This document shows, in pieces, positions 3,939 to 54,115 of a stretch of 64,000 bases of DNA. Each line of letters opens with the position of its first letter. Position 1 is the stretch's first letter. Under the pieces are notes generated by a model. It worked only from the letters and a program-made list of their open reading frames with translations. It did not search any database and was not told where the DNA came from. The position numbers and the translations under genes were made by a program. This DNA comes from an uncultured Clostridia bacterium (lineage in GTDB: Bacteria; Bacillota; Clostridia; Christensenellales; UBA1242): NCBI GenBank assembly GCA_934746645.1, contig CAKVFE010000002.1, positions 26,044 to 90,043 of the forward strand, in the 5' to 3' direction.

Positions 3939-3967
3939 TTTACATTATTTTTAATATAGACTATAAT
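3939..3967 (+). promoter_or_regulatory. Near-consensus sigmaA-type promoter
   Basis: TTTACA (3939-3944), a 17-nt spacer, then TATAAT (3962-3967). The predicted TSS is about 10 nt before the first repeat unit. Confidence 0.5.
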
Positions 3968-3983
3968 TAGTATGTTATGGTAT

Positions 3984-4437
3984 TATAAACTATGTGATGT
4001 TGATTTACTCACTATGTTCGTAAATCAAGTTGCTAATCGCAACAACCATTGCTACACAATGGATACATAGTTTTGATTCGGCGTCAGTTTATGCTAAATG
4101 CCACTCCGTGTCGCTTGCATAAACTTCCTTGAGTATAAACTATGTGATATTGTATTGTTCACTTTGTTCACAATACAAGTTGCTAATCGCAATTCCACGA
4201 TAAATCGTGGCATCACAGTTTGAATAAACATCAGTTATACGAAAATATTGCTTTGCACTGCTTTCGTCTAACTTCCGATAATATAAGCTATGTGATGTTG
4301 ATTTACTCACTATATTCGTAAATCAAGTTGCTAATCGCAACAACCATTGCTACACAATGGATACATAGTTTTGATTCGGCGTCAGTTTATGTTAAATGCC
4401 ACTCCGTGTCGCTTACATAAACTTCCTTGAGTATAAA
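3984..4437 (+). repeat. Tandem A-B-A array of a ~150-nt multi-hairpin element (units 3984-4133, 4134-4281, 4282-4431)
   Basis: Units abut directly, and each starts TATAA(A/G)CTATGTGAT. The two A units are near-identical. The B unit shares the helix layout but has compensatory changes in the helices (details in findings). Confidence 0.9.
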
Positions 4438-4480
4438 ATACAATTTTAGACAATAATTAAAATACAATTAGTTAGGTGTT

Positions 4481-37299: not shown

Positions 37300-37926
37300 T
37301 TATGATATATGTAGTTTACTTGTTTTTTCTTCTAAATACTCATTGTATTTTTTTTGTTCCAAATTGGTAAGCTTATCAACAAATGCTTTTTGCTGTTGAT
37401 TTAGTTTATTGTACTTTTCGTTAGGAGCCCAACTATCTTCAAAATATATGCGTTTGTGATGTCCACGCCAAGTTTGTTTAATTTCGTTGCCTAATGCGTG
37501 ATACATAAGTTGTAAAAATTTATATTCGTTGGTTTCATTTTCTTGTTCGTTTAATTTAGAATTTGATACGCCTTTTATTTTTGCAACAGGGCATATAGTA
37601 CCACTAGAATATCTTTGACCAACTTTATCAGCGTGAGCTTGTGCCATTTGATATACATATTTTCCTAGTCCAGTACCTTGATAATCATAACGAGTTATAA
37701 AGTATTCGATATAACAGTTGTTGCAATCTAGGTCATATTCGATAGATGTTGCTGGACGCATATAATCGTCTTCGTCCAATAATACTATTTGATATTTTCT
37801 TTGTCTTATTTCGTTAATTGTAAACCAAGCAACAAAAGACCTGTTTGCTTTTGGAACAAAAACGATTCTTGCTATAGAATCTTTGTCATTGGATTTTATG
37901 GTGTCTAAAACTTCTTCTAATGTCAT
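37300..37926 (-). CDS. GNAT-motif paralog 1 (208 aa)
   Basis: Start moved to the ATG at 37926 (AGGAG 7 nt upstream; the N-terminus MTLEEV matches paralog 5, MTLEEL). Motifs: YDYQGTGLGKYVYQMAQAHAD, ICPVAKIKGVS, FLQLMYHALGN. Confidence 0.8.
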   Translation of the reverse strand: MTLEEVLDTIKSNDKDSIARIVFVPKANRSFVAWFTINEIRQRKYQIVLLDEDDYMRPATSIEYDLDCNNCYIEYFITRYDYQGTGLGKYVYQMAQAHADKVGQRYSSGTICPVAKIKGVSNSKLNEQENETNEYKFLQLMYHALGNEIKQTWRGHHKRIYFEDSWAPNEKYNKLNQQQKAFVDKLTNLEQKKYNEYLEEKTSKLHIS

Positions 37927-37958
37927 TATAGAACTCCTAATCAATTAATTACATATTT

Positions 37959-37987
37959 ATTATATCATATAATTGTCCATTTGTACA
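37959..37987 (-). promoter_or_regulatory. sigmaA-type promoter of paralog 1 (a duplicate of the paralog 5 promoter)
   Basis: Minus strand: TGTACA, a 17-nt spacer, then TGaTATAAT. The block TGGGTATGTACAAATGGACA...ATATGATAT is shared with 41047-41084. Confidence 0.5.
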
Positions 37988-38016
37988 TACCCAACTTAAA
38001 AGTGTTGCGATGATAA

Positions 38017-38320
38017 TATAAACTATATGATGTTGATTTACTCACTATGTTCGTAAATCAAGTTGCTAATCGCAACAACCATTGCTACACAATGGATACA
38101 TAGTTTTGATTCGGCGTCAGTTTATGTTAAATGCCACTCCGTGTCGCTTGCATAAACTTCCTTGAGTATAAACTATGTGATGTTGTATTGTTCACTTTGT
38201 TCACAACACAAGTTGCTAATCGCAATTCCACGATAAATCGTGTCATCACAGTTTGAATAAACATCAGTTATACGAAAATATTGCTTTGCACTGCTTTAGT
38301 CTAACTTCCGATAATATAAA
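38017..38320 (+). repeat. A-B pair of the ~150-nt multi-hairpin element (units 38017-38166 and 38167-~38320)
   Basis: Near-identical to units A and B at 3984-4281, differing only by a few point changes. Lies between paralogs 2 and 1, in the antisense orientation to them. Confidence 0.9.
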
Positions 38321-38350
38321 AAAGACTAAGCAATTTTACTTAGTCTTTTA
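38317..38350 (-). terminator. Rho-independent terminator after paralog 2
   Basis: AAAGACTAAG/CTTAGTCTTT 10-bp stem flanked by A- and T-runs. Confidence 0.6.
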
Positions 38351-38353
38351 TTA

Positions 38354-39052
38354 TTAATTTGTTTTACCTTTTTTATTAATATCATCTAAATAATCAAATC
38401 TATGTATGTACTCATTATATTGATGTTTTTCGTACTTTACAGCATCTTTAATAAATTTTAGTTGTTCGTCATTAAGTTTTGCTGTTTTTTCTCCAAGTTT
38501 CCATTTATCAGAAAAAGTTAGGATATCAATATCTCCTGCTTCAACTTTGGTTATTTTATTGCCAAGAGCGTGATACATAAGGGTTAGGAAAGTATATTCT
38601 TTTTCTGTACAATCTTCTTTATTGTTTGATACACCTTTAATTTTGCCAACAGGGCATATCATACCTTCAGAGTATGGAGTTTTTAATATATCAGCGTGAG
38701 CTTGTGCAAGTTGATATATGTATTTACCTAGTCCAGTACCTTGATAGTCATATCTTGTTTTAAAATAACAAATATAAATTCCACTATTATTAATTTGATA
38801 TCTGATAAGTGCAACTGGATCTAAAGGGTGCTTTTCGTCTTGCAATATTATTTGGCAGTTTCTTGTTTGAAAATCGTTTATAGAAAATGAAACAATAAAT
38901 TTTCTTTTTGCTTTATCAACATAAACAATATTTGATGGTTCTTCTTTACCGTCATCTTTTAAAATAGATTTAAGCAAAAATGTATAGTTTATATCCAAAT
39001 TGGTATCAGTATCAACACTTTTTGTATCGTCAACGAATTTTGATTTATCCAT
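38354..39052 (-). CDS. GNAT-motif paralog 2 (232 aa)
   Basis: YDYQGTGLGKYIYQLAQAHAD, ICPVGKIKGVS, FLTLMYHALGN, KLNDEQLKF. Confidence 0.8.
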   Translation of the reverse strand: MDKSKFVDDTKSVDTDTNLDINYTFLLKSILKDDGKEEPSNIVYVDKAKRKFIVSFSINDFQTRNCQIILQDEKHPLDPVALIRYQINNSGIYICYFKTRYDYQGTGLGKYIYQLAQAHADILKTPYSEGMICPVGKIKGVSNNKEDCTEKEYTFLTLMYHALGNKITKVEAGDIDILTFSDKWKLGEKTAKLNDEQLKFIKDAVKYEKHQYNEYIHRFDYLDDINKKGKTN

Positions 39053-39053
39053 A

Positions 39054-39710
39054 TTATTTACTCTTATCCTTTTTATTTTTTGATTCTAGATATTTTTGGT
39101 TTTGTTTCATTTCGTACTCAACCATTTTTTCTAAAAATTCTTTTTGGTTTTCGTCTAACTTTTCTAACTTTTGTCCGTGTTTCCAGTTGTCTTCAAATGT
39201 TAAGTCAACACCTTGATAATTACTTTTTTCTATTATCTTATTACCAAGAGCGTGATACATAAGAGCTAAAAATTTAAATTCTTTTTCAATGCTATCATCA
39301 CTATCTGAAGATACACCTTTTATATCATCAACAGGGCAGATATAACCATCTGAAAATTTAAGACCAAGTTTGTCAGCGTGTGCTTGAGCAAGTTGGTACA
39401 AGAATTTGCCAAGTCCAGTACCTTGATAATCATATCTTGTTTTAAAATATGAGATGTGCATACCATAATCTCTAAGTTCGTATCTTATAAACGATACAGG
39501 CTCAACTATAGTAGTAGGTCCATCTACCAATGAAATTTGGCAAAGTCGACCCATTTTTGCACTGTACTTAAAAGTTATTATCAAATCTCTTTTTGCTTTA
39601 GGTACATATATTAGTTGAGCAGGTGAGCCAACTCCGTTGTAGGATTTTGCCCATTTTATTGTGTCTTTTTCTTCTTGAGTTAGTGGTCTTGTGTTTTTAT
39701 CTTTTGACAT
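39054..39710 (-). CDS. GNAT-motif paralog 3 (218 aa)
   Basis: YDYQGTGLGKFLYQLAQAHAD, ICPVDDIKGVS, FLALMYHALGN, KLDENQKEF. There is a 1-nt gap to paralog 2. Confidence 0.8.
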   Translation of the reverse strand: MSKDKNTRPLTQEEKDTIKWAKSYNGVGSPAQLIYVPKAKRDLIITFKYSAKMGRLCQISLVDGPTTIVEPVSFIRYELRDYGMHISYFKTRYDYQGTGLGKFLYQLAQAHADKLGLKFSDGYICPVDDIKGVSSDSDDSIEKEFKFLALMYHALGNKIIEKSNYQGVDLTFEDNWKHGQKLEKLDENQKEFLEKMVEYEMKQNQKYLESKNKKDKSK

Positions 39711-39722
39711 TTCTTTTTGTCC

Positions 39723-40313
39723 TTATTTAGTCTTTTCTATTTTTAAGTTTAATTTATTATCATATTCAAGCATTGAATCCAAAAATTTTAATTGTTCATT
39801 ATTTAGTTTTGCTATCTTTGTATTTGGTTTCCAGACATCTTTAAATGAGTCTAATTGTATACCGGGATATAAATCAGATTCATTTTGTATTTGATTGCCA
39901 AGTGCGTGATACATTAGCTTTAAAAAATTCATTTCTGTTTCGTATGTTTCTTGTGGTGTCCCAGTAATGCCTTTTATTGCTCCAATAGGGCTAATAATAC
40001 CATGAGAACAACATATTTTATACTTATCGGCGTGAGCTTGAGCAAGTTGATACAAGAATTTACCTATGCCTTTACCTTGATAGTCATAATCAGTTTTAAA
40101 AGAAGATATATAGCATTTGTCTTCGTGTAAGTCATATTCAATAGTTGATATTGGGTCAGTTGATTCAACATCATATAGAATTAAGTCAGCATAAATATCT
40201 TTTCTTCTATATCTTAAAACATAATCCTTATCAGCTCTATCAATATGTACTTTTTTAATATATGATGAAGGGTATCTTCTTGTAAGTCTTTCTTCCAATT
40301 CATCTATAATCAT
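39723..40313 (-). CDS. GNAT-motif paralog 4 (196 aa)
   Basis: YDYQGKGIGKFLYQLAQAHAD, ISPIGAIKGIT, FLKLMYHALGN, KLNNEQLKF. Confidence 0.8.
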   Translation of the reverse strand: MIIDELEERLTRRYPSSYIKKVHIDRADKDYVLRYRRKDIYADLILYDVESTDPISTIEYDLHEDKCYISSFKTDYDYQGKGIGKFLYQLAQAHADKYKICCSHGIISPIGAIKGITGTPQETYETEMNFLKLMYHALGNQIQNESDLYPGIQLDSFKDVWKPNTKIAKLNNEQLKFLDSMLEYDNKLNLKIEKTK

Positions 40314-40326
40314 AGTTTACTTCCAA

Positions 40327-41016
40327 TTATTTTTGATTGTTATTAATTTTTGCATCAAGAGTTTGTGTACTTTTATATTGTATTATTCTTTCGTATTTTA
40401 ACATTGAGTTGACAAATTCTTTTTGCTCAGTATTTAATTTTTCATATTTTTGGTTGTGTGTCCAACTATCTCTAAATTTTGTTATTGGTTTACCATTACT
40501 TTTGGATTCGATAATAGTATTGCCAAGAGCGTGATACATAAGTGCTAAAAATTTGCGTTCTGCTTTGTCAGAATCTACACCAGATTTTGTTACACCTTTA
40601 ATATCATCTAGGGGAGAGATTACACCATAAGAATTATTGATGTTGGTGCAATCCATATGTGCTTGAGCTAATTGGTAGATATATTTGCCTATACCTTTAC
40701 CTTGATAGTCATAACTTGTTTGAAAATGAGCTATATAGTATTCTCTTTGTTTTTCAAAAGAAATTATTTTTTCATCACTATTAGGATTGTTGCTGTATGT
40801 AGTAACTGGGTTTTCTGTAAGTTGATACCATATTTGTGCTATTGGAGCAAAACATCTTATTTCGTCCATAACCAAAATTTTGCAAGTCTTAAATGGTGGC
40901 ATTTCTTTAGTAAATGCCAATAAAAAATTCTTTTGTGCTTTTGGTATATACACAATTTTTGTTGGCATATTAGGATTGCAAAATTTAATTTTCTCTTGAA
41001 GTTCTTCTAATGTCAT
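40327..41016 (-). CDS. GNAT-motif paralog 5 (229 aa)
   Basis: Start moved to the ATG at 41016 (GGAG 8 nt upstream). YDYQGKGIGKYIYQLAQAHMD, ISPLDDIKGVT, FLALMYHALGN, KLNTEQKEF. It has a ~20-aa insertion before the motif strand. Confidence 0.8.
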   Translation of the reverse strand: MTLEELQEKIKFCNPNMPTKIVYIPKAQKNFLLAFTKEMPPFKTCKILVMDEIRCFAPIAQIWYQLTENPVTTYSNNPNSDEKIISFEKQREYYIAHFQTSYDYQGKGIGKYIYQLAQAHMDCTNINNSYGVISPLDDIKGVTKSGVDSDKAERKFLALMYHALGNTIIESKSNGKPITKFRDSWTHNQKYEKLNTEQKEFVNSMLKYERIIQYKSTQTLDAKINNNQK

Positions 41017-41046
41017 TTTCAAAACTCCATAATATATCTTATATAT

Positions 41047-41075
41047 ATAATATCATATATATGTCCATTTGTACA
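41047..41075 (-). promoter_or_regulatory. sigmaA-type promoter of the paralog 5-2 operon
   Basis: Minus strand: TGTACA, a 17-nt spacer, then TGaTATTAT. Confidence 0.5.
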
Positions 41076-41189
41076 TACCCATATTTTTCAAAATTTGATA
41101 TTTTTATATAAATTTTAATTGTTTATTTATAGAGTTTTGACAAAGTAAGTCAATAATGTTATTAATAAATATATACTATGGAGAAAAAT

Positions 41190-50704: not shown

Positions 50705-50739
50705 TTTTATCCTTTGTTTGTATTTAGTATGTTGTATAA

Positions 50740-50875
50740 TCTAAAATTAAACGAGAGCATTGCAAAGCAATATTTTCGAATAACTTATGTTTACCCAAAT
50801 TGTGATGTTTGTTTTACGATGGTAGTTATGATTTGTTATTTAGGTTATAAACAACATAACATCACATAGTTTATA
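50740..50875 (-). repeat. Divergent single copy of the multi-hairpin element (minus orientation)
   Basis: The reverse complement starts TATAAACTATGTGATG and contains CATCACAATTT and CGAAAATATTGCTTTGCAATGC, matching unit B landmarks. The internal hairpins are replaced or degenerate. Confidence 0.7.
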
Positions 50876-50964: not shown

Positions 50965-51261
50965 AAAATCCCGAATAAAAAAAGTACTCCGTAAGGAGTA
51001 CTAAGCTGGTGCCGAAAGTGGGACTTGAACCCACATGATATTGCTATCGCGGGGCGACTCGTAAAGTAAATAGTCCAGTGGACTATTTATAGATAGCGAA
51101 ACAGAGTGAAGCGATAAGCCGGGAGCAACTTGTTTGCGGTCAGGCTCCGACAGGAGTTTGATGTCCCGACTCAAAATCCCGAATAAAAAAAGTACCCCGT
51201 AAGGAGTACTAAGTTGGTGCCGAAAGTGGGACTTGAACCCACATGATATTGCTATCGCGGG
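50965..51261 (-). repeat. Direct duplication with a 208-nt period: 89-nt blocks 50965-51053 and 51173-51261 (tRNA-Leu 3' half plus terminator plus flank)
   Basis: The two blocks differ at 2 positions. They are separated by a unique 119-nt GC-rich spacer (51054-51172). Confidence 0.9.
51007..51053 (-). pseudogene. Orphan 3' half of tRNA-Leu(CAA): variable arm, T-arm, 3' acceptor strand and CCA
   Basis: The reverse complement CCCGCGATAGCAATATCATGTGGGTTCAAGTCCCACTTTCGGCACCA is identical to the 3' 47 nt of the intact tRNA. No 5' half precedes it. Confidence 0.85.
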
Positions 51262-54065: not shown

Positions 54066-54115
54066 GCTTTATATTATCGGAAGTTAGACGAAAGCAGTGC
54101 GAAGCAATATTTTTT
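54066..54115 (-). repeat. Truncated 3' fragment of a B-type element (minus orientation)
   Basis: GCTTTATATTATCGGAAGTTAGACGAAAGCAGTGCGAAGCAATATTTT is the reverse complement of the last ~48 nt of unit B (4234-4281), with 2-3 changes. It starts 6 nt after the polA stop. Confidence 0.8.

Follow-up and report, generated by a model that had tools for sequence, protein, structure and literature searches.

What is the 298-nt element that occupies the only large gap of an otherwise tightly spaced gene array, and how did it come to be there? The array, five paralogous genes whose resemblance to GNAT is weak, lies in a 64,000-nt stretch from an uncultured Clostridia bacterium (contig CAKVFE010000002.1; this whole stretch is called the window hereafter). 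The element, termed A-B after its two units, recurs almost unchanged in the leader of uvrB. We find that it belongs to an uncatalogued family of small, non-autonomous interspersed repeats, one that comes with an unusual mobility hypothesis: its gene-less units of ~150 bp abut at boundaries resembling dif, the site of Xer recombination. Judging from these sequences, we give an even chance to the reading that A-B is two such units and that host Xer-type site-specific recombination would be what moves them.

The element, its ends and its other copies in the window are the following:

38017..38166, plus strand: unit A, 150 nt, made of a four-way junction (P1-P4) on its 5' side and an A-type hairpin domain on its 3' side, with the end ACTTCCTTGAG; matched by nhmmer and by the covariance model.
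38167..38314, plus strand: unit B, 148 nt, with the same 5' architecture, a B-type long hairpin (P5) and the end AACTTCCGATAA; 172 bits with the covariance model.
38156..38183, plus strand: internal A|B boundary, a dif-like 28-mer ACTTCCTTGAG-TATAAA-CTATGTGATGT that matches B. subtilis dif at 21/28 positions and is among the window's three best on either strand.
38006..38033, plus strand: left end of the array, made of the flank TGCGATGATAA, TATAAA and the unit right arm CTATATGATGT; it would be an attL-like hybrid site.
38304..38331, plus strand: right end of the array, made of a perfect XerC-type arm ACTTCCGATAA, TATAAA and the flank AAAGACTAAGC; it would be an attR-like hybrid site.
3984..4431, plus strand: sister array A-B-A, preceded by the promoter of uvrB (3939-3967) and followed by its start codon (4481).
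50731..50875, minus strand: 'C', a lone and diverged unit within the leader of a gene for a YgjV-like membrane protein; 73.6 bits, with the 3' arm decayed to AATTTTAGATTA.
54068..54113, minus strand: 5'-truncated fragment of a B unit, comprising the 3' hairpin half and ACTTCCGATAA-TATAAA, right after the polA stop codon.

Altogether the window holds six units and one fragment (three units at 4 kb, two at 38 kb, 'C' and the piece after polA). The first letters of a unit are TATAAA-CTATGTGATGT and its last are (A)ACTTCCGATAA in the B type or ACTTCCTTGAG in the A type; the units contain no open reading frame. A first-pass annotation of this DNA had described the two main loci as near-identical, and so they are: 38017-38314 and 3984-4281 differ by 6 mismatches in 298 nt (98% identity; repeat family D1). 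Unit A shows two differences from the unit at 3984-4133, and unit B carries three stem-breaking changes relative to 4134-4281. Two details of that description needed amending. The first locus does match A-B over 3984-4281, but it is actually an A-B-A array; and B does start at 38167, but it ends at 38314 rather than at ~38320, the TATAAA at 38315-38320 being shared with the flank.

The host sequence surrounding the element at 38 kb reads as follows:

37300-37926, 38354-39052, 39054-39710, 39723-40313 and 40327-41016, minus strand: five GNAT-like paralogs, numbered 1 to 5 in this order.
38320-38349 (stem), both strands: intrinsic, bidirectional terminator of paralog 2 from the terminator scan; pre-existing host sequence.
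37987..37959, minus strand: good promoter of paralog 1 from the promoter scan, TGTACA-17-TATAAT with TG upstream.
37959..37993, minus strand: the same promoter with a conserved box, TGGGTATGTACAAATGGACA..TATGATAT; pre-existing host sequence, common to paralog 5 (41047-41081).

Spacers between successive paralogs, taken from the open reading frames of the window, measure 427, 1, 12 and 13 nt. A-B fills the 427-nt one and so occupies the sole large gap of the array, as first described. Its placement between the paralog-2 terminator, found in a scan in which 0.1 terminator-like sites are expected by chance, and the paralog-1 promoter is equally borne out. The antisense orientation to the paralogs attributed to it is nominal only, as the functional strand of the element is not assignable.

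How old is this arrangement? The regions upstream of paralogs 1 and 5 are indeed alike: 37953-37993 is 90% identical to 41041-41081 (repeat family D15), the latter containing a promoter of the same type (41075..41047), and both proteins start with MTLEE. The first-pass annotation took this likeness as a trace of recent growth of the array by a segmental duplication that carried the promoter along, a view that related genomes contradict. Two element-free relatives (L137 and L138) possess 1:1 orthologues of all five paralogs, with 72-94% amino-acid identity, whereas the paralogs inside one genome share just 36-49%; paralog 1 is no nearer to paralog 5 (38%) than to the remaining ones. The box GGGTATGTACAAATGGACA..TATGATAT, followed by the Shine-Dalgarno sequence and the MTLEE start, stands upstream of paralogs 1 and 5 in 3/3 genomes compared. 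Since the 1:1 orthologues and the conserved box are found in element-free relatives, the five genes and their two look-alike promoters constitute an old conserved arrangement rather than the product of a recent duplication, and, from its sequence conservation, the box looks like an old promoter/operator and not like a recent segmental copy. In both of its occurrences (37953-37993 and 41041-41081), the box includes a palindrome, TGTACA, that overlaps the -35 region; it probably serves as an operator through which a single regulator would act on paralogs 1 and 5, two members of the GNAT-like array with separate transcription.

The element, by contrast, is a newcomer. The same run of paralogous genes is present in four related assemblies that lack it (L137, L138, L141 and L142), which disposes of the suggestion that it mediated the rearrangement; its arrival postdates the gene arrangement and it had no role in building the array. 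The other suggestion made at first, that it inserted afterwards and is mobile, agrees well with the strains compared, in which the junction is polymorphic for the element and paralog 1 is present throughout. The paralog spacer is filled only where the strain's paralog 1 is 93-100% identical to that of the window; it is empty, between otherwise collinear flanks, in L142, L141, L137 and L138, whose paralog 1 is 89, 88, 85 and 74% identical. The paralog-2 terminator is kept in L142 and L137. The covariance model yields zero matches in the empty-site relatives of both the paralog spacer and the uvrB leader. The nearest empty site, that of L142, reads ..GTGATGACAATTAAAAAAGACTAAGCAATTTACTTAGTC.., where its counterpart in the window is ..GCGATGATAAT[ATAAAC ... 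CCGATAATA]TAAAAAAGACTAAGCAATTTTACTTAGTC..; across the left insertion point L142 reads GTGATGACAATTAAAAAAGACTAAG. No target duplication is evident at L142, the cleanest of the empty sites. At the filled spacer the number of units also varies by strain (2, 3 or at least 4, with differing unit variants). It was thus in a recent ancestor of these strains that an A-B dimer became inserted, with the terminator of paralog 2 on one side and the promoter of paralog 1 on the other.

The uvrB locus leads to the same conclusion, at lower resolution. Three relatives (L143, L145 and L149) retain the promoter, with a spacer of 115-161 nt, and have no array there; with the promoter kept and the array missing in all three, the 450-nt array must have dropped into the uvrB leader. 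These empty sites are too diverged for the exact junction to be placed, so that L142 is the sole clean site. In the window, the strong uvrB promoter TTTACA-17-TATAAT (3939-3967) lies 17 nt upstream of the A-B-A array, and the uvrB mRNA of this strain probably carries a ~450-nt, highly structured leader that is not in its array-free relatives. A weaker promoter-like site, CTTACA-16-TAAAAT (4412-4439), is formed by the end of the last unit together with the flank. At the paralog locus, the strains of the 93% group (L131-L136) have an extra gene for a 322-aa DUF4932 protein ~400 nt downstream of paralog 1, before a DUF4186 gene; it is absent from the window, L137, L138 and L141.

How far does the family extend? 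In a scan of one genome per species, the core CAAGTTGCTAATCGCAA appeared on nine contigs of the metagenome-assembled genome (MAG) 'Christensenella sp. UBA6345', which holds ~16 units that are 84-91% identical to those of the window and stand in flanks unrelated to it. A metagenome scan with the 5' motif added ~35 further carrier contigs from gut-type assemblies, a set biased by the motif that served as search pattern; one host is of higher GC (L048, L090), and its element has the left-arm variant GCGTCCGATAA. Units occur singly or in head-to-tail mixed arrays (A-B-A, A-B, B-A, B-x-A, B-B). The arrays are intergenic in all cases and randomly oriented with respect both to neighbouring genes and to the local GC skew (22/43); in the window, both unit orientations are found on one replichore, with no GC-skew switch in 64 kb. 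Viral contigs, searched with four patterns, returned chance matches or ordinary dif sites and no units. A-B had no blastn match in 72,556 plasmids, nor in phage records. With Rfam, only tRNA-Leu reached the gathering score in the window, a scan of the array at E up to 10 gave chance-level matches, and scans of six related loci gave tRNAs only. No transposase or integrase genes were seen near the arrays, in the window and the available flanks.

Units are also shuffled internally: in sub-unit mosaics, the P2 stem types are exchanged between A and B units. In one variant (L016:333-470 and L042:4232-4372), an unrelated closing stem with three hairpins replaces the 5' four-way-junction domain next to a normal A-type 3' domain, which is due either to domain swapping or to convergent upkeep of the architecture. 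A second repeat family, GTCATTCTGAGCG.AACGTAGTG.AGTCGAACCC..., adjoins truncated units in a UBA6345-like genome (L032:5380-5480, L034:6540-6620, L012:3990-4060 and L123:2040-2140). It has no Rfam match and begins after CAGTTTATG, as if inserted into an A-type unit. Finally, a 116-kb IMG/VR contig of 28% GC contains a lone AACTTCCGATAA-TATAAA-CTCATATGTTT with no adjoining unit (L153:4540-4580), which may have arisen by chance or serve a phage as an attachment site of this type.

What, then, defines the ends of a unit? Published dif sequences of Firmicutes include those of B. subtilis, ACTTCCTAGAA-TATATA-TTATGTAAACT (Kono et al. 2011, PMC3025954), S. aureus, ACTTCCTATAA-TATATA-TTATGTAAACT, Macrococcus, ACTTCCGATAA-TATATA-TTATGTAAACT, the Clostridium-class organism Desulforudis, ACTTCCGATAA-TAGATA-TTATGTTGCCT, and B. 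cereus, ACTGCCTATAATATATATTATGTTAACT (all PMC3025954). XerC/CodV binds the left arm of dif and XerD/RipX the right one, and strands are exchanged in the centre (PMC5357621). Compared with the dif of these other Firmicutes, from which that of the host may differ, the unit-unit boundary ACTTCCGATAA-TATAAA-CTATGTGATGT matches at 11/11 positions of the XerC arm, 5/6 of the centre and 7/11 of the XerD arm; its arm ACTTCCGATAA is identical to the left arm of Macrococcus and Desulforudis dif. By simulation, a match of at least 22/28 is expected 0.033 times per 64 kb with both strands counted. The window's top three dif-like 28-mers are the three internal unit boundaries, and every match of at least 22/28 in the 1.07 Mb of loci gathered is an element boundary.

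The ends are also the most conserved parts of the units, the invariant columns being the arms and TCCGATAA; as at real dif sites, TCCGATAA is invariant and the outer arm bases vary. In one unit variant the right arm, CTATAGGAAGT, exactly reproduces a XerC-type arm in inverted orientation. In 9/31 left flanks TATAAA comes right after ATAA, and among loci not chosen by motif TATAAA is found at 9/13 left ends versus 5/12 right ends. The latter difference is a trend only; an asymmetry of the centre between left and right is expected if XerC exchanges strands first. All boundary sites are in direct orientation with an identical centre, and directly repeated Xer sites with identical centres are in the configuration that permits excision (bioRxiv 10.1101/2024.04.09.588662). 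In the attachment sites of TLC phage and of the gonococcal genetic island (GGI), too, the XerC arm and the centre are conserved while the XerD arm diverges (PMC5357621). TATAA(A) at both ends of the arrays, which the first-pass annotation had put forward as a possible target-site duplication, is more plausibly the centre of a dif-like recombination site, L142 being devoid of a duplication.

Between these ends, the unit folds into a four-way junction, in which P1, with a bulge of 2 nt, is the closing stem and P2-P4 are hairpins; the long hairpin P5 and a short tail follow. For unit A, the fold has a z of -3.6. In an alignment of 18 B-type units, 94% of cells are paired, as opposed to 31-41% when the partners are slid, and 23/45 pairs have changes on both sides; 0/500 shuffles reach the observed values. 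At L012:3846, L039:5626 and in the L016/L042 variant, every stem is swapped for unrelated sequence and the architecture is retained. Stems that are replaced while the architecture is kept indicate that intrastrand pairing is under selection, and on such comparative grounds a single-stranded or cruciform form of the unit matters. Whether one RNA strand is concerned depends on the alignment: G-U and A-C mismatches number 18:16 in the alignment by MAFFT, made independently of the structure, and 53:27 in the model-fitted one, which leans towards the model. Scans of the 4-kb and 38-kb arrays detected no promoters or terminators belonging to individual units. When a circular or tandem single strand is folded in silico, the boundary is predicted to face the conserved junction segment GTTTGAATAAACATCAG in a long imperfect stem; no covariation that tests this pairing was found.

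By analogy with the folded attP of CTX phage, the fold may help to present the recombination site; alternatively, it may act in co-transcribed RNA. CTX builds its attachment site from a folded single strand (PMC5357621; PMC3442271). The A-type 3' domain (GATTCGGCGTCAGTTTATG..AAATGCCACT.CGTGTCGCTTGCATAAACTTCCTTGAG, e.g. 38102-38166) is nearly invariant across diverged genomes, unlike the covarying B-type hairpin, which suggests sequence-specific recognition.

From the existence of the family, its covarying structure, its strain polymorphisms and the dif similarity of its boundaries, we infer the following pathway as the likeliest way in which the element moves. A host Xer-type tyrosine recombinase would act on the dif-like unit boundaries and excise units as circles. 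The circles would re-integrate at an existing unit boundary, giving rise to head-to-tail arrays of variable length, and occasionally at AT-rich intergenic pseudo-sites of the form ..ATAA-TATAAA... No gene of its own would be needed by the element, as in integrative mobile elements exploiting Xer (IMEX). The A-type left arm ACTTCCTTGAG is without the inner ATAA, and A together with the next unit could behave as one cassette, which would fit the block copying of the A-B dimer. The lack of terminal inverted repeats, of a duplication at L142 and of an orientation bias is consistent with a double-strand site-specific mechanism.

Several points weigh against movement by Xer recombination. The insertions are at scattered intergenic positions and not at the single chromosomal dif, and the clean empty site, GACAA-TTAAAA-AAGAC.., is only weakly Xer-like. 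The right arm of the boundary matches at just 7/11 positions, and the A-type left arm does not have the inner ATAA usual in Xer arms. All these scores refer to the dif of other Firmicutes, the host dif and xer genes lying outside the comparison, and the likeness to dif was spotted on viewing the sequence and then tested by simulation. Many active direct Xer sites on one chromosome should endanger the host. A double-strand Xer reaction also leaves the strongly conserved intrastrand fold unaccounted for, and no recombinase gene was found near any array in the window and the available flanks. Finally, unit gain and loss could equally stem from unequal homologous crossing-over; the P2-swapped mosaics between A and B show that homologous exchange does occur.

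Four other explanations have to be set against this one. The first does without a mobile element: the loci at 4 and 38 kb would result from simple local segmental duplication or, as the first-pass annotation itself had allowed for, from faulty assembly (a collapsed or chimeric repeat). Short-read contigs do break within the element, and in two assemblies, L132 (ERZ27287398) and L134 (ERZ27287395), the paralog-1 side of the array runs not into paralog 2 but into other loci (the pyruvate kinase terminator; the gene for a 3026-aa protein). These joins are either repeat-induced chimeric contigs or genuine rearrangements between arrays. However, two contigs of another, independent assembly (L001 with L002) enter A-B from opposite unique sides and overlap within B, single contigs of related strains from other samples (L131 and L133) span the whole junction from paralog 2 through the array to paralog 1, and the family occurs in many genomes and samples; we find an artefact hardly credible. 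A second explanation takes the units for structured non-coding RNA genes or modules, in a small-RNA array or a leader, that spread by duplication or gene conversion, with the likeness to dif as an AT-rich coincidence. It would account for the strong covariation in five helices and for the two arrays located in 5' leaders after good sigma-70 promoters (those of uvrB and the YgjV-like gene); G-U modestly exceeds A-C in the model-fitted alignment (53:27), and transcription has been reported for a similar repeat, bcr1 of the B. cereus group (PMC3184786). Still, the units have neither promoter nor terminator of their own, and, since the bases that follow TATAA already belong to P1, a transcript of unit length cannot have TATAAA as its -10 box. 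The units point either way at random with respect to flanking genes and no promoter faces the 38-kb copy; the near-equality of G-U and A-C in the structure-independent alignment (18:16) is unlike selection on one RNA strand. Zero Rfam families match, the presence/absence polymorphism is clean and the dif match of the boundary is far above chance. We consider RNA modules improbable as the identity of the units.

The two remaining explanations keep a mobile element and change the enzyme. Mobilization in trans by a single-strand HUH-type transposase, as in palindrome-associated transposable elements (PATE) derived from the insertion sequences IS200/IS605 or in repetitive extragenic palindromes (REP) served by their associated tyrosine transposases (RAYT), would make TATAA the target or cleavage pentanucleotide. 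The absence of terminal inverted repeats and of a target duplication, the hairpins near both ends and the fold kept by covariation, as for recognition of single-stranded DNA, are all in its favour, as are the head-to-tail arrays, expected where the target is restored by the right end. However, a replication-strand bias, shown by IS200/IS605 elements and by integron attC sites, is missing here (22/43 by local GC skew; both orientations on one replichore). Moreover, the left and right hairpins are mutually unrelated, with hypervariable sequences, the available flanks of the copies revealed no Y1/HUH transposase, and the 11/11 match to the XerC arm is left unaccounted for. To us such a transposase seems no more probable than the RNA modules. 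Even less can be said for a classical cut-and-paste MITE (miniature inverted-repeat transposable element) moved by a DDE transposase, for which TATAA would be a 5-bp target-site duplication. TATAA(A) does flank every array on both sides, and size, intergenic location and copy number are MITE-typical (PMC3184786). Against this, TATAAACTATGTG.. and ..CTTCCGATAA, the two ends, do not form inverted repeats, the best account of the cleanest empty site involves no duplication, and strict head-to-tail arrays with exactly one TATAAA between units are unusual for DDE elements; we rate a MITE very unlikely.

Some narrower identities were considered and discarded. A cis-regulatory leader or riboswitch is ruled out by the random orientation relative to the downstream gene. 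A promoter in each unit, with TATAAA as its -10 box, would have the wrong -35 spacing and collide with P1, which begins in or just after TATAAA, and none is found in the scan. A self-cleaving ribozyme, a type III antitoxin array, an omega-RNA or bridge-RNA and a tRNA-like structure find no support in Rfam or in the anatomy (unit size, loops, no partner gene). An integron attC site is at variance with units that abut without cassettes, with the lack of strand bias and with shuffling breakpoints that fall inside the unit (shared P3) and not in the outer stem.

One further repeat of the window may record another mobile element. At 50965-51261 on the minus strand, the 3' 89 nt of tRNA-Leu(CAA) with the terminator are duplicated; the copies are 98% identical and stand 208 nt from each other. 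Between them is a GC-rich, stably folding segment (~120 nt, z = -2.9) that has no Rfam match. The duplication looks like the att scars of an integrated, mostly lost element.

How does the family compare with known systems? Like it, the pneumococcal BOX repeats are modular and non-coding, form tandem arrays of sub-units with a predicted fold and are located in intergenic as well as in transcribed regions (PMC3184786). In BOX, though, the ends boxA and boxC act as inverted repeats around a short boxB, the modules measure 45-59 nt, there is no dif-like boundary, and movement is thought to be due to the transposase of an insertion sequence. Integron attC sites, including the clusters of attC sites lacking integron-integrases (CALIN), resemble the units in that a conserved fold, more than sequence, defines the recombination site, with AAC...GTT boxes in the outer stem and extrahelical bases; a tyrosine recombinase recognises them, as one would the units. 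They differ in having gene cassettes between the sites, in their orientation relative to replication and in recombination by IntI, while our units abut, are unbiased and have no intI in sight.

Modules bounded by pdif/xrs sites on Acinetobacter plasmids come closer: these are discrete, delimited by XerC/D-like sites and present in many copies per replicon (bioRxiv 10.1101/2024.04.09.588662). They are, however, gene-carrying and plasmid-borne, their sites are mostly inverted and/or have different centres, and no excision was seen in assays (bioRxiv 10.1101/2024.04.09.588662). The sites described here are direct, have the same centre and are chromosomal, and their cargo is a structured non-coding segment. 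With IMEX (the phages CTX, VGJ and TLC and the gonococcal GGI), the family shares the lack of an own recombinase, the two flanking dif-like sites and the tandem arrays (PMC5357621). An XerC arm and centre near dif next to a divergent XerD arm, a further trait of IMEX (PMC5357621), is what the boundary displays when compared with the dif of other Firmicutes. But IMEX are kilobase-sized, carry genes and sit at one chromosomal dif, whereas the units are of 150 bp, have no open reading frame and are scattered. Integration at dif is not what we observe either, with four sites in 64 kb, at least nine loci in one MAG and an empty site that is not dif. Mechanistically, judging by their boundaries, IMEX and, more loosely, pdif modules appear to be the closest systems; the element would work like both and is a member of neither.

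Functionally, the closest known system is bcr1 of the B. cereus group. It is a non-coding, interspersed repeat of ~155 bp, patchily distributed between strains; its 5-bp flank is TTTAT, whose complement ATAAA lies within the TATAAA of the present element, and it has a two-domain, 'cruciform-like' fold kept by compensatory changes (PMC3184786, PMC6542083). A 'site-specific recombination-like mechanism' has been invoked for its movement (PMC3184786, PMC6542083). The two differ in their hosts, the B. cereus group as opposed to low-GC, Christensenella-like gut Clostridia, and A-B has no match in the plasmid set where bcr1 copies were reported; bcr1 was here compared by its description, and not by a consensus. 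The TATAAA around every array does contain ATAAA, yet the empty site of L142 has no duplication. To our knowledge, neither head-to-tail arrays of mixed units nor a dif-like boundary has been described for bcr1, and our literature search found no account of gene-less, dif-bounded chromosomal repeats in Firmicutes.

Small structured repeats such as bcr1, BOX and the enterobacterial repetitive intergenic consensus (ERIC) are common and their movement is mostly unexplained; a family with a near-perfect XerC half-site at its unit boundaries offers a concrete hypothesis. The practical consequences are twofold. The family breaks short-read assemblies and yields chimeric joins in MAGs, for which L132 and L134 are candidates, and this calls for caution in the whole clade. 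In addition, 150-450 nt of strongly folded sequence are put into leaders (those of uvrB and the YgjV-like transporter) and into gaps between terminator and promoter, which may alter expression between strains. If movement by Xer is true, gene-less mini-cassettes on the chromosomes of gut Clostridia would join phages, islands and plasmid modules as hijackers of Xer. A bolder form of the hypothesis, advanced tentatively and in our view somewhat more apt to fail than to hold, makes the units gene-less 'mini-IMEX': selfish cassettes that would use dimer-resolution recombinases to excise, stack and colonise pseudo-dif sites across Firmicute chromosomes, with a fold that presents or protects the site as in the attP of CTX. 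Were it correct, the movement of bcr1-type repeats, long without an explanation, might be understood in the same way.

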